From: a virus
Virus record (IMG/VR): IMGVR_UViG_3300044630_005137
Location: 42,227 to 106,226 of that record
Direction: 5' to 3' (one strand)
DNA: 64,000 bases
Notes under the pieces: generated by a model
What the model was told of the DNA's origin: nothing
Seen by the model: only the letters and a program-made list of their open reading frames with translations
The model's database searches: none
In this document: positions 13,456 through 64,000 of the stretch, piece after piece
How positions within the stretch are numbered: the stretch's first letter is position 1
Layout of the letters: each line of letters opens with the position of its first letter
Made by a program: the position numbers and the translations under genes

Positions 13456-14057
13456 ACTTGCTCCAGGCTTATGTTAACACTCCAAAAGGGTTGTATGCCT
13501 CTTTTTATTACAGTAAAGTCGCATGAGGTAAACATCATATTGTAAGTATATTTATTTGCCAAGAGGCCAGATGATTCCTCTATCATATCTACTGGAAATA
13601 CTGTTGGGTTTAATTTAATTAAAAATGCACCTTGACCAGCTGCGCTTTCATAAAAAGTTTTTAAATCTTCTGCTCCCCATCCACCATCAACTGTTTCATT
13701 TCTAAATGACGGTATCATTGCCCAAGATATGGATAGGTTTAGTTTATCAGCAATAAAATACTTTCTTAATGTTCCATTTGACATTCTTTGGCTATTTTCA
13801 ATTCTATTTGTACTTATAGAAAGAGGATCTCTATTGTGCTCTGTAACTCTTCTAAATTTTGTTGCAGTTGTTTTATCGCTAGTTGCAAGACCGTTTTTAG
13901 CTGCTGTATGAAAATCATATATATTTCCTGGTGCTGGAATATTTACTCCCTTATAATCAAAAGTGTTGTTAGCTGTATCAATTGCAAGTGGGTCGGGTGC
14001 TTGTATATAGAGAATTGATCCCTTTGATAAATTTTGAAACAATGGGCTCTGTGTCAT
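13452..14057 (-). CDS. Distal tail (Dit-like) protein
   Basis: 201 aa directly after the tape measure. Motifs RM.NGTLRKY and W.V.I.LE.V. Confidence 0.65.
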   Translation of the reverse strand: MTQSPLFQNLSKGSILYIQAPDPLAIDTANNTFDYKGVNIPAPGNIYDFHTAAKNGLATSDKTTATKFRRVTEHNRDPLSISTNRIENSQRMSNGTLRKYFIADKLNLSISWAMIPSFRNETVDGGWGAEDLKTFYESAAGQGAFLIKLNPTVFPVDMIEESSGLLANKYTYNMMFTSCDFTVIKRGIQPFWSVNISLEQV

Positions 14058-20000: not shown

Positions 20001-23000
20001 CCGTCGGCGTCCATGTACTCACGTTTTCTGTAGCCCAAGGTTCCAACTTTACGGCTCTTTGTTCCATCTTGCCCAGTCTCTTTCCAATCGCCAACCATTC
20101 CAGGACCAGACATAGATATTGGCATAATTTGGCCAGGTCCCATTAGATAGTTTGCACCTGGATATGCAGCCGAATAGCTTCTAGCTTGATGTCTTAATAT
20201 ACCGTCCTTAATATCTCTTGTATTTGTTTTTACCCAATTAGAAAGGAATGAAGCATTTAGTCTTGCAGATGCTACTTGGGATTTTGCAAAATCTCTATAT
20301 GCGCTATTAATGTGAGTTGCTGATGTTGCAATTCCATATCTTAAACCTACTGTGCCGACCTTAATTGATTTAGTTAAAGAATCAAACGCTCTAGTTACTC
20401 CTGCTGGTAGCTGACCTATTTGAGAAAGCTTTAAGGTATCTATAATCTGTTGAGATTGACCAGTTGCTACTGAACCAAAAGCGTTACCAGCAACTCCAGA
20501 TCCTCCAACATAAGGAACTCGGATGACCTGCATTTGAGGGTTTCCTGAAGATGTGTATCCAGATCCAGATGGAGGATTATAAGATGCAGTTCTTGCTGCT
20601 CTTAATCTATCATCTTCAGCTCTTTTTGCTGGGTTTCCTGATCTCTGTGACCCTTTTTTATTCTTAGCGCCATATGCATATCTTCCTGATCTAACTGGGC
20701 CTCCGCCGATTGGGCCACCACTATTTCTTTTAGCTGCAACATGAACTGCATGCAGCGGACCAAAATCAGTTGCATCATCCATTCCATTTTCAAATCTTTG
20801 TAGCAATTTGATATATGGGGCTCTGTCTTCTCTCGGCAACGTTGCAACAAACTTAATAAGTTTTGGATGCATCTTTTTCATTGCGGCTTTTATTTTTCTG
20901 TTATACTGCTTAGATGTCATTCCTGCAGCAATTGGTGCTGTGTTTACTGCAAAGTCTTTCCTGGCTCCGCCTTTAACTCCAAGCAGATTTATCATAGCTT
21001 GATCTATCATAGAAGGAAGAGACTCTGCGTGTGCGGTATTGCGTGAAGCTTTAGGGAATACTCCTGCTGCTCCGACATCTGCCAAAACATTTCCATAAAC
21101 ATTGCTTGGAGATAAATCCTTATTATTCATAACTAAAGATGCAATTGTTTGTCTAATCATTTCATCTTCGGTAAAGACTGTTCCTCCAGTAGTAAACCTT
21201 TTATCAAACGGTGACTCAACACCGAGCAACTTTGATTTGCCACTTGGGTCTAATGGATTTGATATTGTTTTAATTGTTTGCTCAGGAGCATCAAGCCCAA
21301 ACACTTCTCTAGCCATTCTAGTTCCGTATACCTCAGCTTTAGCAGATATTTCATTTGGAACACCCTTAAAGAACTTAAGTCTACCTTCGGAGTCTCTGTA
21401 TAATCCAGAAACACCAGGTATTGGATAACTCATTCCAGAGCTTGGTGAAACCATGTGTCCATATTTAACGGGAGGCAAATCTTTAAACGATCCAGTTGCT
21501 GTAGCCCTTGACATTTCACGAGATTGCTCTAAAATATCAAGTTGCTTACCTGGCGGTAATAATTTTAACAATGGGGATATGCTAGTCCCTCTATCTCTGC
21601 CCGCTACTGCTTCTTTAATCCACGGGTACTTAATCATATCGGCTTCACGCTTTTTAGCATATTGAGCTTGCTGAGCCAATCTAATAGACTCTAGTCTTGC
21701 AGAGAGTGGAGGAACCACTCCGTATGAAAATCTACCTGGAGATACAGATCCACCTGGAATCATACCTCCCATGTTAAGTTTAGCAAGTACTGGTGTCATT
21801 ATAGGAGGTCTTCCTCTAGGGATTAACATCCATCTCTTTCTTTCCATAACGGCTTCAAGGAACATCTGAAGATCGTTTCTTTGCTTTGGTGTTGCTCTTA
21901 CAACTGAACCAGATGCAATTTGTTCTTTAGTTTTAAACAAATTATTTTCTTCAAGCGCTGTAGCAATATCATCTACTGTTGTCATCTTGTGCATTCCAAC
22001 AGATTTAAGTGCTATCTGAAAATTCTTTCTAGCATCTTCTCCGCTCAAGTGAAGTATGTCTGGAGATATTCCTATATCTTGAAGTCTAGCCATTATGCTG
22101 TTAATACCGTTTGGAATTACTGCGGCAACTCCCATGTGACCGCTAGTGGCATACCCAACATTTCCATGACGTGTAATATGGCCTCTAGCATGCAAGCCTT
22201 CTATATAAGGCATGCCCTTTGAATTCTTAAGATCAGTAGGAGTAACCCCTTCAATCAAATCAAATACATCTTTAAACTTTCGATTCTTAAGCATAGCGGA
22301 TCTTACATTATTTAGTTCATAGTTTAGGGCTGTGCTTCCGCCAGTGCTTCTAGTATTTGTAGGATCATTTAGCTTTAATCCAGGGAATTTAAGATTACCA
22401 TTAGCATCTTTAGCTCCTTCTAAACCTTGAACCTGTTTAATTCTTATGTCTATAAACTTCTCAATAGATCCGCCTGATTTTCCTATAGCTTTATCAAAGT
22501 TACTAGTTGCAATATTAATAGCTTTATCAATAGGCATTTTAGCTTTGCCTGCTAATTCAGCAGCATCTAACATGATCATTCTTACTCTAATGTCGTCTGC
22601 GTATCTTGGGTTATTAATAAATCTTAGATATTCTCTTAGCCTTCTCTTATAATAGGCTTTATTTTCTACTTGTGGAGTTTTGCCTGTCTTCTTTCCATAT
22701 CCAGTAACTCCATTCATTATCTGCCCGCCGAAATTGTAACCGCTATTTGCGGCATCTACAGCTGCATACAGTTCAGGCATTCTTTGAATCTTAGGACCAA
22801 ACACTACTTCCCGTGGTGTGAGTGCTGCTGTTATCTCTCCACCATTTTCATATGTAGCAGAAGCCATTGCAACAAGCGGTGCATTTGCTGGGTCCATAGA
22901 TGCTGATTGGTTTAATACGTATCCACCAACTGGAACACTTCCAAGTCTATCGTCATAGTTAATAGAAGATGGACCAGAAACCATAGTCTTGCCTGGGCCA

Positions 23001-29077: not shown

Positions 29078-30060
29078 TACACCAATACCATTTGTGTTAT
29101 AACATAATCTGCTAGAAGTTTATCTGCGTAAGAAGATCCAGTTCCACCAAAGGCCTCTGAAGAATATTCAAAATCCCAGTCTGTTGTAGATATCTTTTTA
29201 ACATATCTTTCTCTCCATATACGATCTTTTGCAAAATACATCTTCATTAGTTCAACTGCTGCATCTCTAATTTCATTTGGAATATAATCCCAACCAAATC
29301 TAGCATAAACCTTATAAGACTTTGATCTTCTAAAAATATTTGGAGATGAATCATTAATAGAGGGAGGAACCATTCCATTTGCAATATATACATCATCATT
29401 GATGCCAGCAAAATGATTGGCTCTTATTCCAAATCCACTTACTGTATTTTCAACAGTTATGCCTAAGTTATTAATACCATTGATATTGTCTATAAGCAAT
29501 TCATCATTGGCATATAGAGTATGTAGCCTATTTATTTTTTTAGGCATTGAAAGTGTATCTGAATCACTTCCTATTGTAAAGAAGCTATCATCATGCAAAT
29601 AAAACTTTTGTCCTGTGTGCCCTTCAATTATATTTCTAGCATATCTTTCAGCTAGCTTTAATTCCTGGAATGTTTTATGATTTGGATCATTTGCATCTGA
29701 ACCAAGACCCATCTCTTGAGCTGCCTCTTGAATATCAACGTATGGAGTAACAATATCTAGGTAGGTTGTAGTTGAGTATGCAACTGAGTTGAACTGCCAA
29801 TCCCATACTAACTTAAACTTTCTATTTCTTGTTGCATTCTGGACTGGCAGATAAACACTAAACGATCCTTGATCAACTTCGCTTGCTTCTGCTGTTACAG
29901 TTGCAATAATTGATGAAGGATTAATCTGTGGAGAAACAAGCGGATCGCCAGTTATGTCATAAAATTTTACAACTACTGATGATGTTGGCGTTATAGCTTC
30001 ACCTTTTACGTAAAGTTTTGTTGTTGCTGCCGTGCTTGTGTTTATGTATATCTCTGCCAT
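29077..30060 (-). CDS. Head-to-tail adaptor with N-terminal Ig-like extension
   Basis: AERYAR.IIE..TGQ.F and GW..IP..I..AA..L adaptor motifs. Confidence 0.7.
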   Translation of the reverse strand: MAEIYINTSTAATTKLYVKGEAITPTSSVVVKFYDITGDPLVSPQINPSSIIATVTAEASEVDQGSFSVYLPVQNATRNRKFKLVWDWQFNSVAYSTTTYLDIVTPYVDIQEAAQEMGLGSDANDPNHKTFQELKLAERYARNIIEGHTGQKFYLHDDSFFTIGSDSDTLSMPKKINRLHTLYANDELLIDNINGINNLGITVENTVSGFGIRANHFAGINDDVYIANGMVPPSINDSSPNIFRRSKSYKVYARFGWDYIPNEIRDAAVELMKMYFAKDRIWRERYVKKISTTDWDFEYSSEAFGGTGSSYADKLLADYVITQMVLV

Positions 30061-34592: not shown

Positions 34593-34933
34593 TTTTGAGG
34601 ACCCCTAAGTTTAGCCATCTCTTCCTTGTGAACTCCTATGTCCAACGGATCTGGGGTAAGACCCCATCTTAATCTTTGCTTCTGGTATTCAAACTCTTCT
34701 TCATCAATTTGTCGGCTTCCTTCAATAAATTTAGGCTGGCCTTCTTCAATTCCATAATGAGCAACCGCTTTTGCTAACAAATCAATTCTTTCTTTATTGC
34801 CCAGCATTGATTGTATAGACAAGAAGTTGTTGTCTTCGTCGCCAATCCATCTGCCGTCAGGCATCTCCCAGACATAGACTCCTAATCTAGTCTCGCCAGA
34901 TTTCATTTGAGCGTTAATTCTTTTTATGTCCAT
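34589..34933 (-). CDS. Hypothetical protein upstream of the portal
   Basis: 114-aa ORF overlapping the portal start, with its own TGGTAAAAT. Confidence 0.7.
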   Translation of the reverse strand: MDIKRINAQMKSGETRLGVYVWEMPDGRWIGDEDNNFLSIQSMLGNKERIDLLAKAVAHYGIEEGQPKFIEGSRQIDEEEFEYQKQRLRWGLTPDPLDIGVHKEEMAKLRGPQK

Positions 34934-38106: not shown

Positions 38107-38916
38107 TTACTTAAATAAATCTTCTTTATCTGGGTAAACAAACTCTGGCTCCCAATTGGGATCTTGCTTAAACAAAACATCTTCTCCAGTTGGATCTATC
38201 CAAAACATCGGAAGCATGTATTTCCATCCTGATTTTACTTCATGCGCTGTATGACTAAATGGTGAGGGTGATGGGAATATAACTATGCTACCAGCTTCTG
38301 GTTTAATATAGAAGTCGTACAATCCCTCATTAGCAGGATGCATAAGGTCACCCTGCAAAGAAAGTTCTGTGGCAGTCAAAACTCCTTCTTTTATAGAAAA
38401 AGAAAGCTCTCCGCCTTCATAGTCATCATTTGGCCAAACTACTAAAGAATAAAGAAGCCTTGTGTCACCTTCTTGAGAGTCGTGATGAACTCCCATATAG
38501 TTGCCAGCCCTATATCTATGAACACCAAACTGTTCTAATAGGGTAAGTTCTTTATCTATGCCTTGTTCTTTTTTATAATCTTCACATACATATCTTATGG
38601 CATTAAATAATGGGTCTCTTATTTTAATAAACATTTCTTTTGTTTCTTCAGAAACGTCTTTATCTATGTTATATACATTATTTAATAAACATAATTTTTT
38701 ATATCCATAAACATATGGGTGCCCCATAGATCTGTTTTCGTCTACATCCCACTGATTCCACGGTGTTAATACAGGGTATATATCAGGATTATTTTCAGAA
38801 TCATTTACAAGATCTAGCCATTCTTTTACATTAGGAATAGCATTTCTATAATAATAAACTTGCGGGTGAAGCTCTTCTCTAATCATTCCGTTTTCTAATA
38901 CAGTCGTTTTTATCAT
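38107..38916 (-). CDS. 2OG-Fe(II) oxygenase, prolyl-4-hydroxylase-like
   Basis: HHD...NDDYEGGEL...HTAHEVKSGWKY. Close paralogue of 37345..38061. Confidence 0.9.
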   Translation of the reverse strand: MIKTTVLENGMIREELHPQVYYYRNAIPNVKEWLDLVNDSENNPDIYPVLTPWNQWDVDENRSMGHPYVYGYKKLCLLNNVYNIDKDVSEETKEMFIKIRDPLFNAIRYVCEDYKKEQGIDKELTLLEQFGVHRYRAGNYMGVHHDSQEGDTRLLYSLVVWPNDDYEGGELSFSIKEGVLTATELSLQGDLMHPANEGLYDFYIKPEAGSIVIFPSPSPFSHTAHEVKSGWKYMLPMFWIDPTGEDVLFKQDPNWEPEFVYPDKEDLFK

Positions 38917-39665
38917 TCTATCTCCAATGCTACTTCTTTTTTAGCAGTTTGATCTGGTCCAGGCTTTAGTCTTTCACCTCTTGCTTTAAGTTCTGCCCAA
39001 AGCTCTGCGTCCTCTGCCTGTCTTTTTCTTTGATCTGCTATATCGGTTTCCCACATAGCCTGCTTTTCTTCGCTATAAACAGCCTCTTCATTATCCCAAA
39101 ATGATCCTATAGTTATTCTTGTTCCTTTAGTAATCATTTGTACTTCATGTATATTGTGATGACCTCCAGCAAATGCTGCTAGCATTCCAGTTTTTGGCTG
39201 CAAAGAAATATCATGATCTCTAAAGTTTAAAACGCCACCTTCAAAATCATCATTTAAATAAAGAAATGCTGCCCACTTGCTTCTTTCAAAAGAATTATAC
39301 TCTGGTGAGTCTATTGGTGTATTGTCTGAATGATAACCAGCGTATGCTCCCTCTACCCATTTTTGTGCATGATAGCTAACTAGTCTAACTTTATCACCTC
39401 TACATATCTCTGTAGCTTCCTGTATTTTATCTTGAAGTGTAATAAAAAAATCAGGCGATAAACCAAACTTTTCTTTATCTTCATCGTCTGGCAAGTTAGA
39501 TGCAAATGAGTCATAAAATGATATTGGTGCCCACGGAAGAGTTCCTTTTTCTACAGAATGTTCCCAGTATTTAATAACTTTTTCGCAATCTTCTGGACTA
39601 AGAAAGTTTTCAAAAAACACTATGTCTTCTTTAATTCTATTTTGATTTTCTAAATTAAATGTCAT
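38913..39665 (-). CDS. 2OG-Fe(II) oxygenase
   Basis: HSD...YLNDDFEGG...HEV....GTR. Confidence 0.9.
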   Translation of the reverse strand: MTFNLENQNRIKEDIVFFENFLSPEDCEKVIKYWEHSVEKGTLPWAPISFYDSFASNLPDDEDKEKFGLSPDFFITLQDKIQEATEICRGDKVRLVSYHAQKWVEGAYAGYHSDNTPIDSPEYNSFERSKWAAFLYLNDDFEGGVLNFRDHDISLQPKTGMLAAFAGGHHNIHEVQMITKGTRITIGSFWDNEEAVYSEEKQAMWETDIADQRKRQAEDAELWAELKARGERLKPGPDQTAKKEVALEIE

Positions 39666-40509
39666 TTAAATTAATCCTTTCTAGCTTTTTAAGTTCATCA
39701 TAGTTTATTGTTTGATAAGCTCCAGACTTTCTTTCTTCTTTAGTTCTGGCAATTTCCATTTCTTTCCATATCTCTTTACCATAAAGCTTTTCGTTTTCTA
39801 GCCATTCTTTCGAGCCAGGATAAAATCTTACCCAATGATTTCTTACAAAATATTTAGGTGTGCCCTTTACCTTTTCAACTCCATGCATATAGAATTGACC
39901 AGCATCAGAAAGGAAATCTGGGTCTCCTGCTGGGAACAAAAGTACATCACCCTTTTCTGGCTTGTAATAGAATGTTTTGTTGTCTACCAAGAATGTCAGG
40001 CCACCGCCTTCGTAATCTCCATTTAAATACATTGTACATGTAAATGTAAACTTGTATCCTCTAAAGTCATGATAATCTCTCTGATAGTCTGTGTGTACAT
40101 GCATAGCGAGATCGGACTCTTCTATACCGCCTTCAACTTCATACTTGCATATAGAAGGACCCATTCTTTTCCATAGTTGAGTTAGAGATCCTTCTTCTTC
40201 ATTAAAAACTTCAGCATCACGATCAATTGGTACACCAAATGTTTCTGCATACTGATTTGTTGTTTTATCAAATACTTCAATTAGCTCTTCCCAGCAAAGT
40301 CTTTCTAGTGATGTTCTTTCAGAAGATTCAACAGAGTTGTCAAACTGATCCGCCTCTTTGCCAAAAGTATACCAACCATGCCAATTTAAAGCAGATCCTT
40401 CTGGGTTCTTTTCAGAATCCATAATTGTTTTTGTTAACAAATCAATATCTTTCCAGGGATTTTTGAATACCCATATTTTTGGGTATATCTCTCTATATTT
40501 AAGTGTCAT
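39655..40509 (-). CDS. 2OG-Fe(II) oxygenase
   Basis: HTD...YLNGDYEGG...HGV....PKY. Confidence 0.9.
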   Translation of the reverse strand: MTLKYREIYPKIWVFKNPWKDIDLLTKTIMDSEKNPEGSALNWHGWYTFGKEADQFDNSVESSERTSLERLCWEELIEVFDKTTNQYAETFGVPIDRDAEVFNEEEGSLTQLWKRMGPSICKYEVEGGIEESDLAMHVHTDYQRDYHDFRGYKFTFTCTMYLNGDYEGGGLTFLVDNKTFYYKPEKGDVLLFPAGDPDFLSDAGQFYMHGVEKVKGTPKYFVRNHWVRFYPGSKEWLENEKLYGKEIWKEMEIARTKEERKSGAYQTINYDELKKLERINLNDI

Positions 40510-41195
40510 GGCTTTATATCACCAGTATGCTCAAGTATCTGCCAAAAGAATGGTGACGTATATCTTCCTCCAGAAATAATTGGTCTAACTCCGTGAATAT
40601 AACCTTTATCACCTGGGAAAAAGTATGCTGATCCGCCAACGGGTTTAAATTCTATTCCTTGAACAGGGAAAAACAATTCTCCTCCTTCGTAATCATCGTT
40701 AAAATAAAATAATGAAGCGATATCGTAATGAGGAAAATCATTAGGTGTACCTGCGTCTGGGCCTTCATGCAGCTCTTTGTCTGCATGAGGATCTTGTCTT
40801 GATCCTACAGGCCATCTAACAATTGCTGGTCCTGTAGCCTGAACCTTTACATTAAAAAACTTTTCTACCTCTACTTGCAGTCTTGATATAAGATTATCAA
40901 CAACATATACAATATCTGGATCTGCGGAAATTTCCATAGATTTACGTGTGCAAACTCTATCGAACCATGCGTTTGCATCATAGATTACTGTACCATTTTC
41001 ATTTACGTGAGAATCAGTAATATCCCATGTTTTATTGGTTTTTGCAAAGTTGGTGAGTCTTGTTCTTTCTTGGTCTGTTAAAAAGTTTTTTAGCTCTACA
41101 ATATTTTCTGGACCTGTGCCAAAAAAGCCAGATGGTGTTATGGACCCTAGAGATCTGTAGTCATGAGTGTTATTAGTATTTAATCTTTGTTCCAT
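40506..41195 (-). CDS. 2OG-Fe(II) oxygenase (probable start MEQRL)
   Basis: HAD...YFNDDYEGGEL...HGVRPIISGGRY. Confidence 0.9.
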   Translation of the reverse strand: MEQRLNTNNTHDYRSLGSITPSGFFGTGPENIVELKNFLTDQERTRLTNFAKTNKTWDITDSHVNENGTVIYDANAWFDRVCTRKSMEISADPDIVYVVDNLISRLQVEVEKFFNVKVQATGPAIVRWPVGSRQDPHADKELHEGPDAGTPNDFPHYDIASLFYFNDDYEGGELFFPVQGIEFKPVGGSAYFFPGDKGYIHGVRPIISGGRYTSPFFWQILEHTGDIKP

Positions 41196-41196
41196 A

Positions 41197-41916
41197 TTAT
41201 TTATACTTCCTTCTTGTCCAAAATCTTTTTTTATAGACTCCACCTTCTGGTGTTCTAAAAATTTCTGATGTTTCCATTGCTTTTTGCATAATATCAATTG
41301 GCTTATGAAATATCAACTCTGATTCCCAGTCTTCCCTTTTAAATGGTATTATCTGCAAATATGGTGTTCCTGCAGGTACAATCCCAGCAAATCCATTTTT
41401 TATAAAAAATGGTATTAATCCAGATGTTGTAACCTTATCACTGTCTATTATACCACCGACTGTAAGCCAAGGTAAGTCAAAATGATTTATCGGCTGTATG
41501 TATAAGGAGCTATATCCTTCTGGAAGCTGTGGAGCCCAATTGGCATACCAATGAAAATGATTTTTTTCATAACCAGGAGGAACTTGAAATCCAGTAGACT
41601 CTGGTCTTTCTCCTACAAAATCATCAAATTTTAAAGGCACCTTTGCTTTTATCCTATTGTTTTTTTCATAAAATTCTATGTCGCATGGGGTTACAAGTGT
41701 ATATCCAGATGTAAATGTATCTAGCATGGCTGGACATGCTTTAAAGTTTAGCATTTTGCCGCCGTCTTTATTTGCATTAGAAACTGGATTCCCATAAAAA
41801 TCTTTTATATATATGTCAGCATCTTGCCACCACTTAGGAATAACTCTTGCAGCTGGGCATGGAGCGGTTTCGACATCATTGTAATGCTTGTTTGAATGAA
41901 ATATTATTTTGTTCAT
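41197..41916 (-). CDS. Beta-rich hypothetical protein of the oxygenase cluster
   Basis: K.CP...D....GY and GTPYLQIIPFKRE motifs. Resembles the neighbouring 41913..42647 protein. Confidence 0.65.
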   Translation of the reverse strand: MNKIIFHSNKHYNDVETAPCPAARVIPKWWQDADIYIKDFYGNPVSNANKDGGKMLNFKACPAMLDTFTSGYTLVTPCDIEFYEKNNRIKAKVPLKFDDFVGERPESTGFQVPPGYEKNHFHWYANWAPQLPEGYSSLYIQPINHFDLPWLTVGGIIDSDKVTTSGLIPFFIKNGFAGIVPAGTPYLQIIPFKREDWESELIFHKPIDIMQKAMETSEIFRTPEGGVYKKRFWTRRKYK

Positions 41917-42647
41917 TGGGGTATTCCACAGCCTTCTGGTCCAGTTAAAGAAGTTTCATCATTTTTTAATCGTAACGATTTTACTTCATGAGATCCTATT
42001 TTATTGTTTTTATGGTCTACAGCATTTCTGTAAAAATCAGTCCACTTTCCAGATTTATTAATATCGCTAACAATTTTGCCATAGTCTTCTTTTGGAAAAA
42101 AATCTATTGGTAAATCCTTATATCCTTTTATTGTTGCTACTGAATTGTTTAAATTAGATAAAGATATTGGGATAATTGATGCAACTGGAGTATTTGCTGG
42201 AATAGTAATAACTTCATTGGCCTTTGTTATTCTCCATGCAATTGGAAAAGTGCCTTTAAAAAACGAAGTGCTTATTAGTGTTGTAAAAGGCCAAACACCA
42301 TCTATTGGCCAGTTTGGTGTTGGCATTGCTAGCATGCTTACATTTTCTTCAGTTTTTATAACTAAATTTGTATTAAAGCTAATTGTTGCATTGGCTCTTG
42401 ATGTTGAAACGTAATCCTTACCTTTTAAAACTTTAACGTGAGTGTCTGTTGAATCTGATATGCCGTCCCAAATAAATTCAATATCTACTGGAAAAGAAAC
42501 TCCCCATCCCAAGGTATTTGAAAGGCTTACTGGAAAACAATGATAGGCATGCTTATCAGATGTTTCATCCATCCATTCTCTTTTTACTCCTAGAGGCTGA
42601 ATATCTGCTGATTGATTTGGATAAACTTTGTATACATCAAAGTTCAT
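41913..42647 (-). CDS. DUF6065-like protein
   Basis: KREWMD.T...HAY.C.P....N..GW pattern, recognised from memory. Confidence 0.6.
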   Translation of the reverse strand: MNFDVYKVYPNQSADIQPLGVKREWMDETSDKHAYHCFPVSLSNTLGWGVSFPVDIEFIWDGISDSTDTHVKVLKGKDYVSTSRANATISFNTNLVIKTEENVSMLAMPTPNWPIDGVWPFTTLISTSFFKGTFPIAWRITKANEVITIPANTPVASIIPISLSNLNNSVATIKGYKDLPIDFFPKEDYGKIVSDINKSGKWTDFYRNAVDHKNNKIGSHEVKSLRLKNDETSLTGPEGCGIPQ

Positions 42648-43288
42648 CAGTACCCATCTTTCATTGATTTATCAGACATAAACTGTCTATAAAAAGACTC
42701 TGTATGAGTTGCATCGTTATAATCTGTCATAGTAACAATTGAATATTTTAGTCCAGATTTTACTGGAAGGGCGGCATGAGAGAACAAATATGTAGATGGG
42801 AATATATACAGATCTCCAGCCTTTGGCTTAATAGTTAAATCCAGTTTATCAAATCTTAATCCGCCTTCTTCATAATCATCATTAATATAAGCAACCATTG
42901 ATACTGTTGATATATATGACCAACCATGATCTGAATGATAAGAGAAATGTTGACCTTCTCCATATTTAATAAAATTCATTGCTTCCCAATATTTTAATTC
43001 AATATTGTAAAAAGAAGAATAATCATTTAATGCAATTGCCTGTGCATCATAAACATCTTGCCAAATTGCATCTACTTCTTGATTGTATTTATCAGGAATA
43101 TGGTTTTCAAATTTTTTCCATTTAAAGTCTACACAGTCTCTATAGTCAGGCATTTTTTCTCTATATCCGACGGTTGCTTCTTTCCAAGTATGCATTCCTT
43201 TAGAATCAAGTATTGCACTTTCAAGCCTGTTGATTATATCCATTTCTGGAGTAATTACATTTCTATAAACCCAAAGTCCTGGGAACAA
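42647..43288 (-). CDS. 2OG-Fe(II) oxygenase, prolyl-4-hydroxylase-like (start uncertain, TTG)
   Basis: HSD...YINDDYEEGGL...HAALPVKSGLKY. Confidence 0.88.
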   Translation of the reverse strand: MFPGLWVYRNVITPEMDIINRLESAILDSKGMHTWKEATVGYREKMPDYRDCVDFKWKKFENHIPDKYNQEVDAIWQDVYDAQAIALNDYSSFYNIELKYWEAMNFIKYGEGQHFSYHSDHGWSYISTVSMVAYINDDYEEGGLRFDKLDLTIKPKAGDLYIFPSTYLFSHAALPVKSGLKYSIVTMTDYNDATHTESFYRQFMSDKSMKDGY

Positions 43289-57265: not shown

Positions 57266-57305
57266 ATAAACCCCAATCGGATCCGCCTCTGATTGGGGTT
57301 TTTAT
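57266..57305. terminator. Bidirectional terminator between convergent operons
   Basis: AAACCCCAATCGGA-N6-TCTGATTGGGGTTT followed by a T tract. Confidence 0.8.
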
Positions 57306-57874
57306 TTTCTGTCTTCATGCACAAAAGCTGCATAGACTATTCTTTCTCCATTGTAAAATTTATTTACAGCATGAGAATAATCAAGATTTCCAGGATGAAC
57401 AAGTAAAGAACCAGCTTTTGGCTTAATCGATATATCTTTATTTACATATACTATTTCTCCACCATCAAAATCGTCAGTAATAAAAATAACAATTCCATGA
57501 GATACAAAGGTCGGTCCTTTTTGATCTTCTTCCCAATCATATGAGGCATCATCCTGATGAGGTTGCATCAAATATTTATCATTAGGGTTATCTGAAGTAT
57601 GCCTGTATTTTGTAAAATCTATTTGTTCAGTAGAAGGTATTCTAATTTTTCTATTATTAGACTCTAACATAGTCTTTAATTTTTCAATATACTCAAACCA
57701 TAAATCTATAACATCTTTATTTTTTCCTACTTTAAGCGTAAGATGAACTGGATGCTCGTTGTCTTCAATATATGAATTATTGTTTATTTCATTTATAAAT
57801 AGGACTAAATCTTCTTTAGATATAAAGTTTTCTATATATATAATATTTTCATCGATATCAATCTTATTCACCAA
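57302..57874 (-). CDS. 2OG-Fe(II) oxygenase
   Basis: HQD...DDFDGGEI...KPKAGSL..HP...HAV....GER. Confidence 0.88.
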   Translation of the reverse strand: MVNKIDIDENIIYIENFISKEDLVLFINEINNNSYIEDNEHPVHLTLKVGKNKDVIDLWFEYIEKLKTMLESNNRKIRIPSTEQIDFTKYRHTSDNPNDKYLMQPHQDDASYDWEEDQKGPTFVSHGIVIFITDDFDGGEIVYVNKDISIKPKAGSLLVHPGNLDYSHAVNKFYNGERIVYAAFVHEDRK

Positions 57875-58616
57875 AGATCTCCTTTTTCTTTTTTTCTACC
57901 GTTTCTAAATTATAAAAATCATTTGTGATATTTTCTGGAACCTCAACCTTTTGTGACCCATACGGCACAAATCCTTGAGATGGTCCCATTCTCCAAAAAT
58001 GTGGAGTTATGTATTTAATACCTATATTAGGAACTGCTTCGTGTTCATTATCTAGGTCGCAGGATTTAAACATAACTATACTTCCAGGCTCTGGCTTTAT
58101 TTGTAAATTATAATTTGGGAAATTTAAATATCCATCAAAATAATCATCATTATAGTATATGACAAATGAGTGCTCTAAGTCGTCATAAGGACAATCTGTA
58201 TGCAAACCCCTGGATTGCATAGAGCCGTATCTACCAATAACATATCCAGGCGATGGTATTCTGGGATTTAAGATAGTATCTATACCTAAAATTTTTGCGT
58301 ATTGGTTTGAGCATTCTACAACAGCGTTGTTAATAGATTCAAACACCCAATGACTTTCAATATTTTTCTTATTTGGGTCATATATATTTGGGTCATATAT
58401 GCATTTAGCTAAACCAAAATCTTCTGGTGTAATTCCTAATAATTCCCAGCCTCTTTTTTGTTCTAATGAAAACGCATATTGATTTCCCCACGGAAGCCAA
58501 TCAGTTATAATATCACTTGAAACAGAATCTATATATTTAATAATGTCATTTGAGTTAGGTATTGCATTCTTAAAATAAAAAACTTTATCGTTGTATATTT
58601 CAACTTCTATAGACAT
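57864..58616 (-). CDS. 2OG-Fe(II) oxygenase
   Basis: HTD...YYNDDYFDG.L.F...KPEPGS...HEA....KY. Confidence 0.88.
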   Translation of the reverse strand: MSIEVEIYNDKVFYFKNAIPNSNDIIKYIDSVSSDIITDWLPWGNQYAFSLEQKRGWELLGITPEDFGLAKCIYDPNIYDPNKKNIESHWVFESINNAVVECSNQYAKILGIDTILNPRIPSPGYVIGRYGSMQSRGLHTDCPYDDLEHSFVIYYNDDYFDGYLNFPNYNLQIKPEPGSIVMFKSCDLDNEHEAVPNIGIKYITPHFWRMGPSQGFVPYGSQKVEVPENITNDFYNLETVEKKKKEIFGE

Positions 58617-59368: not shown

Positions 59369-60088
59369 CTATAAATATTTATGTGGAGTTGTGTAAAATC
59401 CTTCAGGCAAATCATCTTCCCCAAATATTCCATTTACAGCACTAGACATTTTAATTGAATCTATGCCTTCATATAGCTGATCATTTTTTCTTAATTCCTC
59501 AGCTTCAGGAAGTGATGCAAATCCAGCTACAATATATCTGACTTTATCGCCTCTTACATCTTCTGTATAGTGTGCATATTCTTCCCATCCAGGATGTAAC
59601 AGCAAATCTCCTTTTTGTGGTTTATATTGAAAGCCAATATTTGGATAAGATATTTCACCACCGTCAAAATTGCTTATATAATGAGTAACGCCAAATACGC
59701 ATTTATTGTCCATCCCCATTGATTCCACCAAATTATCTGCATGTAGGAACATAGACTGGCCTTTGGTCATTCTATGAACAGAGTTCATGCTTTCGACCCA
59801 AAGCTCTTGTCTAAAGAGCTCCTGTAGCCTTATACGCATATGTTTTAGCTCTGCGTCCAACTCTTTATCTTCTACAAAGAAGAATTTCCCATGCCACCAT
59901 TCTCGCTTGTTTTTGTCCCACCAAATATCTTCTCCAAAAGATTCTACATGGCTTACAAGCCTATCGCATAGATCATCTGATAACCAGTTTTTTAGTACAA
60001 CAATGTTTTTCTCAATTAGTACCGCATTAGGTTCTTTTTCTAATATTTGAGAAAGTTGTTTCTTAACTATAGATGCATATGGTTCCAT
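59369..60088 (-). CDS. 2OG-Fe(II) oxygenase (leaderless, start MEPY)
   Basis: HAD...NFDGGEI.YP...KPQKGDL..HP...H.......VRY. TTGACT-16-TATAAT ends 6 nt before the ATG. Confidence 0.88.
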   Translation of the reverse strand: MEPYASIVKKQLSQILEKEPNAVLIEKNIVVLKNWLSDDLCDRLVSHVESFGEDIWWDKNKREWWHGKFFFVEDKELDAELKHMRIRLQELFRQELWVESMNSVHRMTKGQSMFLHADNLVESMGMDNKCVFGVTHYISNFDGGEISYPNIGFQYKPQKGDLLLHPGWEEYAHYTEDVRGDKVRYIVAGFASLPEAEELRKNDQLYEGIDSIKMSSAVNGIFGEDDLPEGFYTTPHKYL

Positions 60089-60228
60089 GCTCTTATTATA
60101 CACCGCCCTATATTCTAGTCAACTGCTTTTTAAGATCTATAAAAATGTTAATATATTTTTTACATGTATGATACACAATTTGGGCAAAACGGACATTTCG
60201 GATAGTGCGCCCATGTTTTAGGGTGTTT

Positions 60229-60269
60229 TGTGATGTATCTCACACGATTTTTTTGTGACTTACACCACA
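60229..60269. promoter_or_regulatory. Two CRP/GlxR-like sites (60229-60244 perfect, 60254-60269 one mismatch)
   Basis: TGTGA-tgtatc-TCACA and TGTGA-cttaca-CCACA. Confidence 0.65.
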
Positions 60270-60303
60270 ATGTCCGAATTATACGCATTTTGAATTAGAC
60301 ATT

Positions 60304-60325
60304 TGTCAGACCCCCATGCTATGCT
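60304..60325 (+). promoter_or_regulatory. PafBC/RecA-NDp-type promoter 1
   Basis: TGTCAG-acccccatgc-TATGCT. Confidence 0.7.
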
Positions 60326-60360
60326 TAAGGTATAACAAACAAACGAAAGGTAATCATCTA

Positions 60361-60507
60361 ATGAATACACTAGAACGAATTAGAAAAGAACAACAAGAAC
60401 GCTATGCGATACAGCGTGAAAAGGATAAGGCTAAGATAGAGGCTATGTTTTCTAATAACCCTCGCCCTTTAAATAACGCTTACCTACTAGCGAAAGAGGA
60501 AAACTAG
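60361..60507 (+). CDS. Small early protein (start MNTLER)
   Basis: GAAAGG RBS before the ATG at 60361. Confidence 0.7.
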   Translation: MNTLERIRKEQQERYAIQREKDKAKIEAMFSNNPRPLNNAYLLAKEEN

Positions 60508-60523
60508 TGTGACTAAGGTCACA
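60508..60523. promoter_or_regulatory. CRP/GlxR-like site
   Basis: TGTGA-ctaagg-TCACA. Confidence 0.65.
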
Positions 60524-60562
60524 AAAATACTTTTGCGACACACCCCCCTAACCTCCCCAATT

Positions 60563-60584
60563 TGTCAGACCCCCATGCTACAAT
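60563..60584 (+). promoter_or_regulatory. PafBC/RecA-NDp-type promoter 2
   Basis: TGTCAG-acccccatgc-TACAAT. Confidence 0.72.
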
Positions 60585-60616
60585 TACAACATAACAACAA
60601 CGAAAGGTCAGAATAA

Positions 60617-60730
60617 ATGACACTAGATGAATACAAGCAAATGGTAGAGGCTCAACGCCTTGCCTCCCTCGCAATCGCCCTAGAGGCGCTAACTAAGTCA
60701 AACGCTATTGCTAAGGAGATGAATAAATAA
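60617..60730 (+). CDS. 37-aa early protein
   Basis: MTLDEYKQMVEAQR... GAAAGG RBS and TAATG coupling to the next gene. Confidence 0.65.
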   Translation: MTLDEYKQMVEAQRLASLAIALEALTKSNAIAKEMNK

Positions 60731-60912
60731 TGTCATACGCATACTCATACGAAACTAACTCAATCTCTAAATGGGACACCATTCAAGAAGATGTCGCAGA
60801 CGCATACGCCTACCTTGATGAGGTAGATGAGGAACAACCTCCACTAGATGACTTCAATGATGAAGATACAGATGAACTAGCAAAACTATACGAACTAACT
60901 TGGGAGAACTAA
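60730..60912 (+). CDS. Highly acidic 60-aa early protein
   Basis: AAGGAG RBS. D/E-rich. Confidence 0.7.
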   Translation: MSYAYSYETNSISKWDTIQEDVADAYAYLDEVDEEQPPLDDFNDEDTDELAKLYELTWEN

Positions 60913-60914
60913 TA

Positions 60915-61064
60915 ATGACTATCACTTACTCACTATGGGACGGCGCACAATTCTTGGGTTTCTTTACCGCAACTAGCGCAGACGAAATGAACAAGACAGT
61001 AAAAGATTTACAATCAATCTCTAAAAATGTAGTAGCACACCTACGAAAGGTAGAACAGAACTAA
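60915..61064 (+). CDS. 49-aa early protein
   Basis: MTITYSLWDGAQFLG... GGAG RBS, translationally coupled. Confidence 0.65.
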   Translation: MTITYSLWDGAQFLGFFTATSADEMNKTVKDLQSISKNVVAHLRKVEQN

Positions 61065-61264
61065 TGACTATTGAACTAAATGAATACGGCTTAATGCTTG
61101 ACCTAGGGGACTTCCTCTATCTATCCCTATCATGGGCTTTCCTTATCTTGTTCGCCGTTGTTTTTATCGGTTATAAGATTTATAAGAGAGTGCAAGCGCA
61201 TAGATGGGCATCTCTAATTAAAAATGAACTAGATGAATTACCTAATGATGAATGGGGTATCTAA
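61064..61264 (+). CDS. Small membrane protein
   Basis: One hydrophobic helix. Coupled to its neighbours. Confidence 0.7.
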   Translation: MTIELNEYGLMLDLGDFLYLSLSWAFLILFAVVFIGYKIYKRVQAHRWASLIKNELDELPNDEWGI

Positions 61265-61383
61265 TGAATAGACTACTAACTACTCTAGTGCAATTAGCCC
61301 TTATCGTTCCCGCCCTTATCATGGGGCGCATGATGTGGCGCGAGATCGTAGCCGACTATAGAGAGTGGGCTAACTCACACTAG
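61264..61383 (+). CDS. 39-aa membrane peptide
   Basis: MNRLLTTLVQLALIVPALIMGR...*. TAATG coupling. Confidence 0.6.
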   Translation: MNRLLTTLVQLALIVPALIMGRMMWREIVADYREWANSH

Positions 61384-61385
61384 CC

Positions 61386-61615
61386 TAACGGCGTGTCGGC
61401 TTGACATTGTCTAGCTGGCCCGCAAAAGAGCGGGGTTATCCACAGGGTTACGGGGGTTATCCACAACCCCCAGGTTTTGCAAGCACGACACGCCCGAGAT
61501 CCGTGTGATTTTTATCACATGACTTGAGCGTCTCACATCATGGACTTACTCGCTAGTAAGTATCTTTTTGTCGGTGGTATCGGCTATAATTGCGGTATAA
61601 CGAAAAAGAAAGGTG
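61386..61615 (+). repeat. Intergenic regulatory module copy 1 (2 DnaA boxes, CRP-like site, palindromes, PafBC-type promoter 3, RBS)
   Basis: TTATCCACA at 61436-61444 and 61457-61465. TGTGA-N6-TCACA at 61504-61519. TGTCGG-N10-TATAAT at 61569-61590. Confidence 0.9.
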
Positions 61616-61621
61616 GTCACC

Positions 61622-61798
61622 ATGACTACACTAAACACACTATGCAAGGCGCATGAGCCTCTTGTTTCCGCTATCTCCGAAATTGGAGATGAACAATTTA
61701 CCCTATGCATGATTTGCGATAGCAACATTGAGCGTTATTACTACGATAGCGACCCTGAGCAATTTCCTACATGGACAGATTGGTATGTGACTAAATGA
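61622..61798 (+). CDS. Small Cys/His early protein
   Basis: C..H...C..C. GAAAGG RBS. Confidence 0.7.
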   Translation: MTTLNTLCKAHEPLVSAISEIGDEQFTLCMICDSNIERYYYDSDPEQFPTWTDWYVTK

Positions 61799-61917
61799 GT
61801 ATTTGGACAAGGTTCGCTACTGTAAGCGATTACCCTAAAGGTATGATGAACGAGTGCGTGTGTGGGCAAGTAGTCCTAGCACCTAAGACACGACATGAGA
61901 ATTGCGAGAATAAATAA
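61795..61917 (+). CDS. 40-aa Cys/His early protein
   Basis: MSIWTRF...CVCGQ...H..C. ATGA overlap with the upstream gene. Confidence 0.6.
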   Translation: MSIWTRFATVSDYPKGMMNECVCGQVVLAPKTRHENCENK

Positions 61918-62081
61918 TGAGTACCTATGTACCAATTAAATCCGTATGTGGTGCGGTATCCACCACAATTAAAATGAACGACTATGACTTAAACCCTCAT
62001 GGCGTTATCTGTTGCGATAATTGCGAAAGCATTTTGTTATGCCGTAAGGCGTGGGACTTTCTTTATAAGGGGAATAAATAA
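61917..62081 (+). CDS. 54-aa Cys-rich early protein
   Basis: MSTYVPIKSVCG...CCDNC. TAATG coupling. Confidence 0.6.
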   Translation: MSTYVPIKSVCGAVSTTIKMNDYDLNPHGVICCDNCESILLCRKAWDFLYKGNK

Positions 62082-62221
62082 TGCCAGTTTTTAATTTTGA
62101 TTTATCCGTAACCATTGAGGACGATAATTTTGAGTCTGCCTTATCATGGTTAAAGGTTATTCCATTGGAACGCCTTGATTTTATTGTTGTCGATTATACA
62201 GAATTAGAGGTTAGCGAATGA
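62081..62221 (+). CDS. 46-aa acidic early protein
   Basis: MPVFNFDLSVTIEDDNFE... Coupled on both sides. Confidence 0.6.
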   Translation: MPVFNFDLSVTIEDDNFESALSWLKVIPLERLDFIVVDYTELEVSE

Positions 62222-62412
62222 AATCACAATTTGAGAAAGATTTAGAAATCAAAGAAAGTTTTATTGATTTACTAAATGAAATTTATCCAACTGTAAAAAT
62301 TGGTTATTCAACTTTTACACCCGCCGAAATCTTAGAGTGTTGCGACCCTGTTGCTTTTGCGATTGGTTTAGTAGAGCATGAAGATTATTTAGCAGAAATG
62401 GAAAATGAATAA
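62218..62412 (+). CDS. Small early protein
   Basis: 64-aa ORF, F.DLLNE.YP.V.IG...F.P.EIL...DP.A. Confidence 0.7.
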   Translation: MKSQFEKDLEIKESFIDLLNEIYPTVKIGYSTFTPAEILECCDPVAFAIGLVEHEDYLAEMENE

Positions 62413-62507
62413 TGGATTTTTTTGGATTTGAAAAAGCAATTGAAATTGATCATCTTACCGATGAGCAAATCTTAAAGCTTGAAGAAATTTTTAAAGATTT
62501 CGAATAA
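62412..62507 (+). CDS. 31-aa acidic early peptide
   Basis: MDFFGFEKAIEIDHLTDEQ... TAATG coupling. Confidence 0.55.
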   Translation: MDFFGFEKAIEIDHLTDEQILKLEEIFKDFE

Positions 62508-62508
62508 G

Positions 62509-62730
62509 TAACGGCGTGTCGGCTTGACAAAGCTGATGCGCCCGCAAAAGAGCGGGGTTATCCACAGGGTTACGGAGGTTATCCACAACCCCTGGAATTT
62601 GCGACACGCCCGAGATTTTGTGATTTTTATCACACGACTTGAGCGTCTCATTATTTGGAATTACTGGCTAGTAATTATCTTTTGTCAGTGCTATCCGCTA
62701 TAATTGCTACTATCAACAAACGAAAGGTGA
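62509..62730 (+). repeat. Intergenic regulatory module copy 2 (2 DnaA boxes, CRP-like site, palindromes, PafBC-type promoter 4, RBS)
   Basis: TTATCCACA at 62558-62566 and 62579-62587. TGTGA-N6-TCACA at 62619-62634. TGTCAG-N10-TATAAT at 62683-62704. Confidence 0.9.
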
Positions 62731-62736
62731 CAACTA

Positions 62737-62949
62737 ATGTCAGCAAATGTCTATTCAATAGAAAGCCTACTTATAGGAAAAACTTATCACTCACGCACTT
62801 TAACAGGCGAAATAATTGACGCAGAAAAGTCTGATGTCTTTTATGGCGCAGGTTTGGAAAGTTATCGGGTTCAGGTTCGCCCACACTATCCCTCAGTATT
62901 TAATCTAAAAGATACTTATCGCTATCTATCAGTTAAGGTCAGTGACTAA
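62737..62949 (+). CDS. Small early protein
   Basis: 70 aa with a GAAAGG RBS. Confidence 0.7.
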   Translation: MSANVYSIESLLIGKTYHSRTLTGEIIDAEKSDVFYGAGLESYRVQVRPHYPSVFNLKDTYRYLSVKVSD

Positions 62950-63140
62950 TGATTAAAGAATACATTGACGAAAACGAATTTTATTTTATTAAAGATGAAA
63001 TAAAAATCTGTTGTGATGAACAACAGTTTATCCATGTCTGCAAAGCGCATGGCGAGCAACAAGGTTGCTACTTTTGCGAATTTAACCCTTATGAGAATTG
63101 CGAGTGTGAAGGCTTATTCGATAGCCCCGAAGCCGACTAA
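62949..63140 (+). CDS. Cys-rich acidic early protein
   Basis: CC...C..H....GC.FC......C.C. Confidence 0.7.
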   Translation: MIKEYIDENEFYFIKDEIKICCDEQQFIHVCKAHGEQQGCYFCEFNPYENCECEGLFDSPEAD

Positions 63141-63141
63141 A

Positions 63142-63163
63142 TGTCAGTGGGCTAGGCTATAAT
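63142..63163 (+). promoter_or_regulatory. PafBC/RecA-NDp-type promoter 5
   Basis: TGTCAG-tgggctaggc-TATAAT. Confidence 0.72.
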
Positions 63164-63191
63164 AAGCAATAACAACAACGAAAGGAAAACT

Positions 63192-63317
63192 ATGATTAAC
63201 TCAGTAATGACGATAGATTGTAAAGATTGCCACGGATACGGCATAATCTTTTTTGGTAATGATAATGACTATGATTGCGAGCCATGCGATTGCGTGGAAG
63301 AATTGGAGAACAACTAA
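63192..63317 (+). CDS. 41-aa Zn-finger-like early protein
   Basis: C..C.G.G...C.PC.C. GAAAGG RBS. Confidence 0.65.
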   Translation: MINSVMTIDCKDCHGYGIIFFGNDNDYDCEPCDCVEELENN

Positions 63318-63523
63318 TGTATAAACTAACTTGCGCTTATGACTCAAATGCTCCGCATTGGTCAGCGGAATACGAAAACGAATTTGGTGCGTGGGAAAAC
63401 TTTTTCCTATTTACCGATTGGGGATTTGCTGATGAATACGCAACTGTAAATCTTTACACGCCAACAGGCAAATGCCACACAAAAATTTTTTACCGAGAAG
63501 GTCGAAAGGTCGTAATTAAATGA
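63317..63523 (+). CDS. Small early protein (start MYKLT)
   Basis: GGAG RBS and TAATG coupling. Confidence 0.7.
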   Translation: MYKLTCAYDSNAPHWSAEYENEFGAWENFFLFTDWGFADEYATVNLYTPTGKCHTKIFYREGRKVVIK

Positions 63524-63678
63524 AAACTTTTGAATTCCTAACCTACATAAATGTAGAAGCAGAAAACTATGATGAGGCTATTGATGTATTTCAATTTCAA
63601 TTAAAATACGGAATAAATAAAAATAATGTCTATGTCGCAGACATAACAGATTTAACTATCGAAAGCGTAGAGGTATAA
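63520..63678 (+). CDS. 52-aa early protein
   Basis: MKTFEFLTYINVEAENYDEA... ATGA overlap. Confidence 0.6.
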   Translation: MKTFEFLTYINVEAENYDEAIDVFQFQLKYGINKNNVYVADITDLTIESVEV

Positions 63679-63680
63679 AA

Positions 63681-63872
63681 ATGATGACACGAAAAGATTA
63701 TGTCGCTACCGCAGAAATTCTAAAGTATGCTAGCGATAAAACTCACCCTGCTGTATTTTCTAAAATGGTAAATGATTTCGCTGAAATGTTTGCGAAAGAT
63801 AATGAGCGATTTGATGTAAAGCGATTTCATGAAGCGAGTGGGTATCATGTCCCAAAATTCACTTCGAGATAA
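63681..63872 (+). CDS. Small early protein
   Basis: MTRKDY...A.IL...F..DN.RFD..RF..A pattern. Confidence 0.7.
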   Translation: MMTRKDYVATAEILKYASDKTHPAVFSKMVNDFAEMFAKDNERFDVKRFHEASGYHVPKFTSR

Positions 63873-63978
63873 GGTAAAGCGAATTCAGGAATTGCGTCGC
63901 AGTAATGCGGCGCAACCTGTTCGCAATAAGAAAAAATATTTTAGAAAGATCAAACATAAAAATAAAATTGCAGAGTAA
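63847..63978 (+). CDS. 43-aa basic early peptide (ELRRSNAA)
   Basis: MSQNSLRDKVKRIQELRRSNAAQPVRNKKKYFRKIKHKNKIAE*. The start codon is uncertain. Confidence 0.5.
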   Translation: MSQNSLRDKVKRIQELRRSNAAQPVRNKKKYFRKIKHKNKIAE

Positions 63979-64000
63979 TGCATAGTTATGCAGCCCGCAA

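Follow-up and report, generated by a model that had tools for sequence, protein, structure and literature searches.

The 64,000 nucleotides (nt) analysed here (the window, to which positions refer unless the record is named) are the last 64 kb of the 106,226-bp IMG/VR virus record IMGVR_UViG_3300044630_005137, and they end in a block of tiny genes in which each transcription unit is preceded by a predicted promoter of unusual form: a TGTCRG box and, exactly 10 nt further on, a TAnnnT −10 element. The record is linear, with 37% GC and an estimated completeness of 91%. Nearly all of its genes are on the minus strand; the small-gene block (60361..64000, continuing at the record start) is the only one on the plus strand. 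It comprises about 20 open reading frames (ORFs) of 31–70 amino acids, several of them rich in cysteine. No Pfam family was found among the small-gene products, two of which match PHROGs of unknown function. Cysteine-rich small proteins with CxxC pairs are encoded, for example, at 61622–61798, 62949–63140 and 63192–63317; they may be zinc-ribbon-like, with no family match. Judging from gene size, orphan status and a position near the terminal repeat of a complete relative, the block is presumably expressed early. Contigs assembled from one lake RNA run (n = 1) are 85–95% like the small genes, a likeness that shows neither transcription starts nor true transcription.

The first-pass annotation had placed the motif at 60304, 60563, 61569, 62683 and 63142, and all five matches are there, each on the plus strand. 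P1 (60304..60325) is made up of TGTCAG (60304–60309), a 10-nt spacer that ends in TGc and the −10 element TATGCT (60320–60325); its predicted start is ~60332 and it would drive the ORF at 60361–60507. P2 (60563..60584; TGTCAG-N10-TACAAT with a TGc extended −10, predicted start ~60591) precedes the ORFs from 60617 to ~61383, and P3 (61569..61590; TGTCGGTG-N8-TATAAT, predicted start ~61597), which has the full form of the actinobacterial DNA-damage promoter known as RecA-NDp, precedes those at 61622–62507. P4 (62683..62704, predicted start ~62711) and P5 (63142..63163, predicted start ~63170) are both of the form TGTCAGTG-N8-TATAAT; P4 would drive the ORFs at 62737–63140, and P5, which begins 2 nt past the stop of the preceding ORF, those from 63192 to the window end. 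A sixth site, P6, lies in forward orientation at positions 66–87 of the record (TGTCAGTGGTCAATGGTATAAT) and is followed by AAACGAAAGG and the ATG of an ORF of 114 amino acids (record 109–453). Its homologue in a relative is the last promoter of that block; the break in the contig therefore falls within the small-gene block, some of which is probably absent from the record. The distance from predicted start to ATG is 15–29 nt at each site and, as had been described, a short A/C-rich leader and a GAAAGG ribosome-binding site (RBS) come before each ATG.

The motif is enriched, confined to one strand and clustered in the block. The window contains six TGTCRG-N10-TAnnnT matches against 1.04 expected from dinucleotide shuffles (maximum 4; none of 100 shuffles reached 6), and the whole record has seven forward and no reverse matches. 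The match outside the block (34710..34731, plus strand, TGTCGGCTTCCTTCAATAAATT) falls between two minus-strand genes, has neither the TGG that often follows the box nor an extended −10, and has no plus-strand gene downstream; we take it as the one expected by chance. Among 20 portal-related IMG/VR records, forward/reverse counts were as high as 24/0, 19/1, 18/1 and 11/0, with 6, 6 and 5 in others, against 0–3 for reversed-pattern controls; the sites cluster in the homologous small-gene block, and the record with 24/0 is a 112-kb complete genome with terminal repeats.

The constancy of the 10-nt spacer holds well beyond the window. In 81.7 kb of related blocks there are 90 sites at N10 and none at N9 or N11, and in 80 further contigs (757 kb, 28–50% GC) the corresponding numbers are 578, 4 and 2; the 578 share one strand, against 12 sites on the opposite one. 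When the whole of IMG/VR was scanned with TGTCAGTGG-N4-TGnTAnAAT, at least 120 stretches matched at the correct spacing, whereas a control with 1 nt added gave 11 single matches in unrelated contigs without N10 sites. The sequence logo was built from 87 non-redundant sites of the related records, collected with the TGTCRG pattern (a larger set has n = 539), and reads AAA-TGTCAG-TGG(or ACC)-nnTaTGc-TAtAAT; in a check that does not depend on the pattern, only TGTCAG (42) and TGTCGG (14) recur 10 nt upstream of TAnAAT. The 87 perfect boxes stand against 7 forward one-mismatch forms, of which 3 are plausible promoters, and 16 reverse ones, a ratio that indicates selection on all six box positions. 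The box is unchanged across phages of 28–50% GC and down to 74% portal identity.

Downstream of the box, an extended −10 (TGn) occurs in about 80% of sites, with G at −14 in 71 of the 87. Upstream, no position of the 87-site logo reaches 0.45 bit, the maxima are an A-run at −3 to −1 relative to the box, and there is no −35 hexamer. Among the five window sites, a −35-like hexamer accompanies P1 alone (TAGACA, 18 nt); the other four have none at 16–18 nt, and a sigma-70-type scan of 60000–64000 found no enrichment (10 sites against 12.0 ± 3.4 in shuffles). The family form is thus AAA-TGTCRG-(TGG or ACC)-N4-TGn-TAtAAT without a −35. On this sequence evidence we regard the five sites and P6 as genuine promoters of a single family that heads every transcription unit of the block. 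The conserved gene start ATGTCAGCAAATGTCTATACAAT (M-S-A-N-V-Y...; window 62737, with homologues in relatives G001, G008, G009 and G012) also fits the promoter pattern; as a false positive in coding sequence it was taken out of the logo. In the relatives G005 (~7831) and G008 (~5367 and ~6736) the −10 lies in the loop of an 8–9-bp inverted repeat (for example, GGTGGGCTAG-TGTATAAT-CTAGCCCAC); this arrangement, seen at 4 of the 87 sites, is no commoner than in permutations.

The first-pass annotation identified the motif as the promoter element of PafBC, the actinobacterial DNA-damage activator, and the published consensus and its position agree with that identification: tGTCgg(N10)tA(N3)T, in which the −26 element spans −23 to −28, a −35 is lacking, and PafB residues R46 and R50 contact a GTC triplet that is near-invariant across actinobacteria (PMC8635444). 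In the mechanism described there, termed sigma adaptation, PafBC inserts between region 4 of sigma-A and the DNA (PMC8635444); its activation is by short single-stranded DNA (PMC11804915). For host-side controls we used four actinobacterial chromosomes or chromosome pieces that are filed as plasmids in PLSDB. These records (NZ_LT559118.1, NZ_CP081497.1, NZ_AP024648.1 and NZ_LR134457.1, one of them 11.85 Mb long) carry chromosomal recA–recX. Exactly one TGTCRG-N10-TAnnnT lies upstream of each recA, 76–94 nt before the gene, in representatives of four orders: Tsukamurella (aaaactTGTCAGAGG..TAGCGT), Arthrobacter (aaaaaaTGTCAGGGA..TAGCGT), Nonomuraea (agaaatTGTCGGTGG..TAGCTT) and Streptomyces (gcgcatTGTCAGTGG..TAGCGT). 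All four recA sites have an A-rich 5′ flank despite genomes of 61–71% GC, and two of the four have TGG after the box, which is also a preference of the phages. In 2.8 Mb of Streptomyces DNA, TGTCRG is followed by TG in 14 of 19 sites (controls, 4). The density of boxes differs greatly, at about 1 per 0.7 kb in the phage block versus about 1 per 120–150 kb in Arthrobacter and Streptomyces DNA. By these comparisons, the upstream half of the phage promoters is a copy of the −26 element found in PafBC-dependent (RecA-NDp, recA P1-type) promoters.

Other identities for the motif were considered and rejected. TTGTCA cannot serve as a misplaced −35, as it lies 11 nt from the −10; a LexA box is absent; chance is not a tenable source of the motif; and an alternative sigma factor was set aside, since none was found encoded in the record. 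We know of no sigma factor with a 10-nt spacer.

Within the phage, the box belongs to the small-gene block. As had been claimed for the structural region, no minus-strand intergenic region, replication or structural, has the box at N10; these regions carry TTGACA-N16/18-TGnTATAAT or an extended −10 alone. Diverging from the block is a sigma-A-type promoter on the minus strand (60095..60122, TTGACT-16-TATAAT, 11/12 match) for a gene encoding a 2OG-Fe(II) oxygenase (59369–60103, minus strand). The near-perfect −35/−10 pair indicates that host polymerase reads the ordinary promoters of the phage, and the box thus sets the promoters of the small-gene block apart as a class of their own.

A second sequence element accompanies many of these promoters. 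Perfect TGTGA-N6-TCACA palindromes of the CRP/GlxR type lie at 60229..60244 (centre ~−95.5 from the predicted P1 start), 60508..60523 (~−75.5, P2), 61504..61519 (~−85.5, P3) and 62619..62634 (~−84.5, P4), and a copy with one mismatch is found at 60254–60269 (~−70.5, P1). The four perfect palindromes of the window are all within the block (0.11 expected), and the 81.7-kb set has 66 palindromes with at most one mismatch against 2.6 expected. Of 539 promoters, 263 have such a site, with centres at −54.5 (20 sites), −64.5 (55), −74.5 (47) and −84.5/−85.5 (44) from the predicted start. Phasing by 10 bp is a mark of an activator that touches polymerase from one helix face. Because the site is kept on a fixed face, a second host activator of the CRP/GlxR type probably contributes at about half of the promoters. 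Neither these phased palindromes nor the extended −10 had been picked up by the first-pass annotation, and both complicate a pure PafBC explanation.

The sequence between the units holds further repeats. A module of about 230 bp occurs twice with 89% identity, at 61384–61625 (ending in P3) and 62508–62740 (ending in P4). Within each copy there are two small hairpins, two DnaA-box-like TTATCCACA words, a long-range inverted repeat (GGCGTGTCG ... CGACACGCC) and the CRP-type palindrome, after which comes the promoter. In the relatives, GCGACACGCC precedes the box by ~27 nt at about 22 of the 87 promoters. There was no Rfam match in 60000–64000.

We searched for a reader of the box encoded by the phage itself, as a phage-made mimic outside the window had been offered as an alternative to the host protein. 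Six-frame hidden Markov model (HMM) searches gave that idea no backing: a WYL domain was found neither in the record nor in a complete (100%) relative nor in three further relatives, sigma70 region 2 was not found in the record, and a Crp-type helix-turn-helix (HTH_Crp_2) was found neither in the record nor in the complete relative. The wider search for WYL or helix-turn-helix (HTH) activators was empty for WYL and turned up sub-threshold HTH matches in a single small ORF. This ORF lies outside the window (record 29082–29180, minus strand) and encodes 50 amino acids here, with an open frame of 47–59 amino acids across four related records. All its matches are below every family cut-off: those to HTH_11 and sigma70 region 4 were seen in four records, that to HTH_DeoR in a single one. 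The ORF is located within the replication module, beside a RuvC-like gene, and no other candidate for a DNA-binding protein of the phage was found; a reader with a novel fold could have escaped these searches.

The phage carries a siphovirus gene set (portal, prohead protease and a tape measure of 3,890 amino acids at 14057–25729, minus strand, the Pfam match of which is a PhageMin_Tail domain near the N terminus only), replication genes for Pol III alpha, RecA, primase and class II ribonucleotide reductase, and 4 tRNAs. Paralogues of 2OG-Fe(II) oxygenase are numerous (38107–43288, 57302–58616 and 59369–60103; record 6351–8300), and a tryptophan halogenase, a GlcNAc transferase and a subtilase are encoded elsewhere in the record, a load of modifying enzymes that is unusual for a phage. 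The portal is 57% identical to that of Streptomyces cluster BE phages (Stanwilliamsviridae), and the phage encodes a WhiB protein (46 bits, above the Pfam cut-off). WhiB is a hallmark of actinobacteria and of their phages; on the strength of this gene and the portal likeness, the host is therefore taken to be an actinobacterium of lakes. Mycobacterium smegmatis is not the host and is usable as a stand-in only. The same stretch of DNA occurs in lake-water metagenomes of 21 different studies (one run each), and a portal at least 74% identical is encoded on more than 600 IMG/VR contigs; this is thus an abundant uncultured lake phage lineage. A megablast search of cultured phages with the promoter region gave no match.

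Attempts to name the host more closely led back to phages. A search for WhiB homologues returned phage orthologues only and no host gene. A scan of genome contigs with the phage WhiB pointed to a contig in JBBALJ01, the public 3.6-Mb bin ‘Bacteroidia bacterium EUL_060’, which has a Bacteroidia-like recA of its own; it was rejected as a host and attributed to stray binning. The bin carries contigs of the phage lineage, with a WhiB 62% identical and two phage-type RecA proteins (334–336 amino acids), and with these beside a second bacterial recA it is a mixed bin.

Our best explanation, and one we consider probable, is that host PafBC reads these promoters. Sigma adaptation is the most likely mechanism: PafBC would always be present in the host cell and become active on binding single-stranded DNA; the active protein would then lodge between the TGTCRG box and the housekeeping sigma factor, at region 4 of the latter, and host RNA polymerase would thereby start at the phage promoters. 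In this way the phage probably borrows the PafBC switch of its host for its block of tiny genes. PafBC binding, PafBC dependence, the single-stranded-DNA trigger and early timing are each inferred. Several points weigh against this explanation. The four host recA promoters have neither an extended −10 nor a near-consensus TAtAAT, unlike most phage sites, and with these two features the phage promoters could, partly or wholly, fire without PafBC. Where CRP-type sites are phased, at half of the promoters, another activator may do the recruiting. The assignment of the block as early draws on gene size, orphan status and position, and the host is narrowed to ‘actinobacterium’ only, from phage genes. 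An inducible damage sensor would be an unusual choice for the first genes of a lytic phage, and the cultured relatives (cluster BE, for example Yaboi) use ordinary −35/−10 early promoters with no such motif.

The extended −10 also lends itself to another account, in which these are self-sufficient promoters of the housekeeping polymerase and the box is an operator at which a phage or host repressor shuts them off, or in which a CRP-type activator recruits the polymerase. Extended −10 promoters can function even when they lack a −35; TGn with TAtAAT is present in about 80% of sites, the minus-strand genes of the phage use extended −10 promoters without the box, and the CRP-type site lies at −54.5, −64.5, −74.5 or −84.5 in 263 of 539 promoters. 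Yet only 6 sites deviate by 1 nt in spacing against 578 that do not, and the box is a non-palindromic half-site; rigid spacing and a half-site are therefore better suited to a reader bound to RNA polymerase than to a dimeric repressor. Half of the promoters, moreover, have no CRP-type site and all have a perfect box. On balance we think this account unlikely.

A polymerase-bound reader might instead be a non-WYL factor made by the phage or delivered with the virion, comparable to MotA/AsiA of phage T4, in which case the likeness to PafBC promoters would be convergence, or the factor would compete with PafBC. Phages often bring their own promoter-specificity factors, the conserved small ORF with sub-threshold HTH_11, sigma70 region 4 and HTH_DeoR matches would be a candidate, and the 3,890-amino-acid tape measure could carry cargo. 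However, that ORF is not part of the block, falls short of every cut-off and would itself have to be synthesized beforehand, and as the box heads every unit of the block, none of them could supply the factor in advance. The HMM searches of the record and relatives gave no WYL, sigma or Crp domain, and it is unlikely that the box, its exact 10-nt distance from the −10, its A-rich 5′ flank and its TG(G) 3′ flank all converged by chance. Retention of the same box across phages so diverse in GC content and sequence is easier to reconcile with a conserved host reader than with a phage reader that co-evolves, and we judge a phage-made factor to be quite improbable. Still further from our expectation, and in our view very improbable, is that the chief effect of the arrays is to titrate PafBC (and polymerase) off the damage and defence regulon of the host, as a sink, with promoter activity secondary. 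Box density in the block, far above that in Arthrobacter and Streptomyces, would suit a sink, as would the role of PafBC in resistance to phages, which is stated to be direct in mycobacteria in a passage of PMC12848934 that cites another paper; but every box stands at a fixed distance from a −10 and is followed by a leader, an RBS and an ORF, none of which a pure decoy needs.

Returning to host PafBC as the reader, we can sketch a fuller scheme, which is tentative and on present evidence doubtful. This lineage of lake actinophages would use the PafBC alarm as an ignition key: single-stranded DNA that arrives with the phage genome or arises from it would activate PafBC and fire about 20 promoters, the Crp site would read the energy state of the host, and the arrays would draw PafBC from the repair and defence regulon. 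To our knowledge, PafBC-type sigma adaptation has been described solely as part of a host's response to DNA damage, and in the literature we searched no paper connects PafBC promoters with the early genes of phages. If PafBC is indeed the reader, a lytic-type phage starts or boosts its programme through a stress sensor of its host, bringing no factor of its own, and that sensor responds to single-stranded DNA, the very molecule a phage brings or makes. These phages are common in lakes and related contigs hold hundreds of such promoters, so this use of PafBC would bear on the virus–host dynamics of dominant freshwater actinobacteria. The promoters also form a natural library of optimized −26/−10 hybrids, some with phased Crp sites, that could serve studies of sigma adaptation or supply damage-inducible parts for actinobacteria.

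Comparison with known systems sets out what is shared and what is particular to this lineage. The nearest cultured relatives, the Streptomyces cluster BE phages such as Yaboi, likewise have many short small-gene units near the genome end, each with its own promoter placed after a hairpin. Yaboi differs in that its small early genes have a −35-like GTTGCA or TTGACA and a TAGACT −10, and TGTCRG-N10-TAnnnT matches once in its 131 kb, which is the control level. The upstream palindromes recall class I CRP promoters of the E. coli lac type and actinobacterial Crp/GlxR sites, in that TGTGA-N6-TCACA stands upstream in 10-bp steps on one face; lac-type centres are at −61.5, −71.5 and −82.5, whereas those of the phages are at about −54.5, −64.5, −74.5 and −84.5 relative to the predicted start. 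The phage sites also occur together with a −26 element, and a phage-encoded Crp was not found. In T4 middle promoters a MotA box at −30 replaces the −35 and an adaptor bridges to sigma region 4, an arrangement like the one proposed here; T4 encodes both adaptors (AsiA and MotA), whereas here no phage adaptor was found and the box is of the host's own type. The SiwR-dependent promoter of M. smegmatis also has a −26 activator element in place of the −35 and a WYL-type reader, but the SiwR target is a 19-bp imperfect palindrome that contains a GGA triplet (PMC10693628). In the phage box the triplet is GTC, as for PafBC, and this difference therefore points to PafBC specifically. The closest likeness is to PafBC-dependent promoters themselves (PMC8635444, PMC11804915, PMC8223512), which have TGTCRG at −28 to −23, 10 nt to TAnnnT, no −35 and a box that is non-palindromic, has A-rich sequence on its 5′ side and is followed by TG(G). 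Against that shared plan, the phage promoters occur in a lytic-type phage as arrays of 6 to 24 per genome and precede orphan small genes rather than repair genes. They add an extended −10 with TAtAAT (about 80%) and a phased CRP-type site (about half), and their box is far more uniform than in the PafBC regulon of the host.

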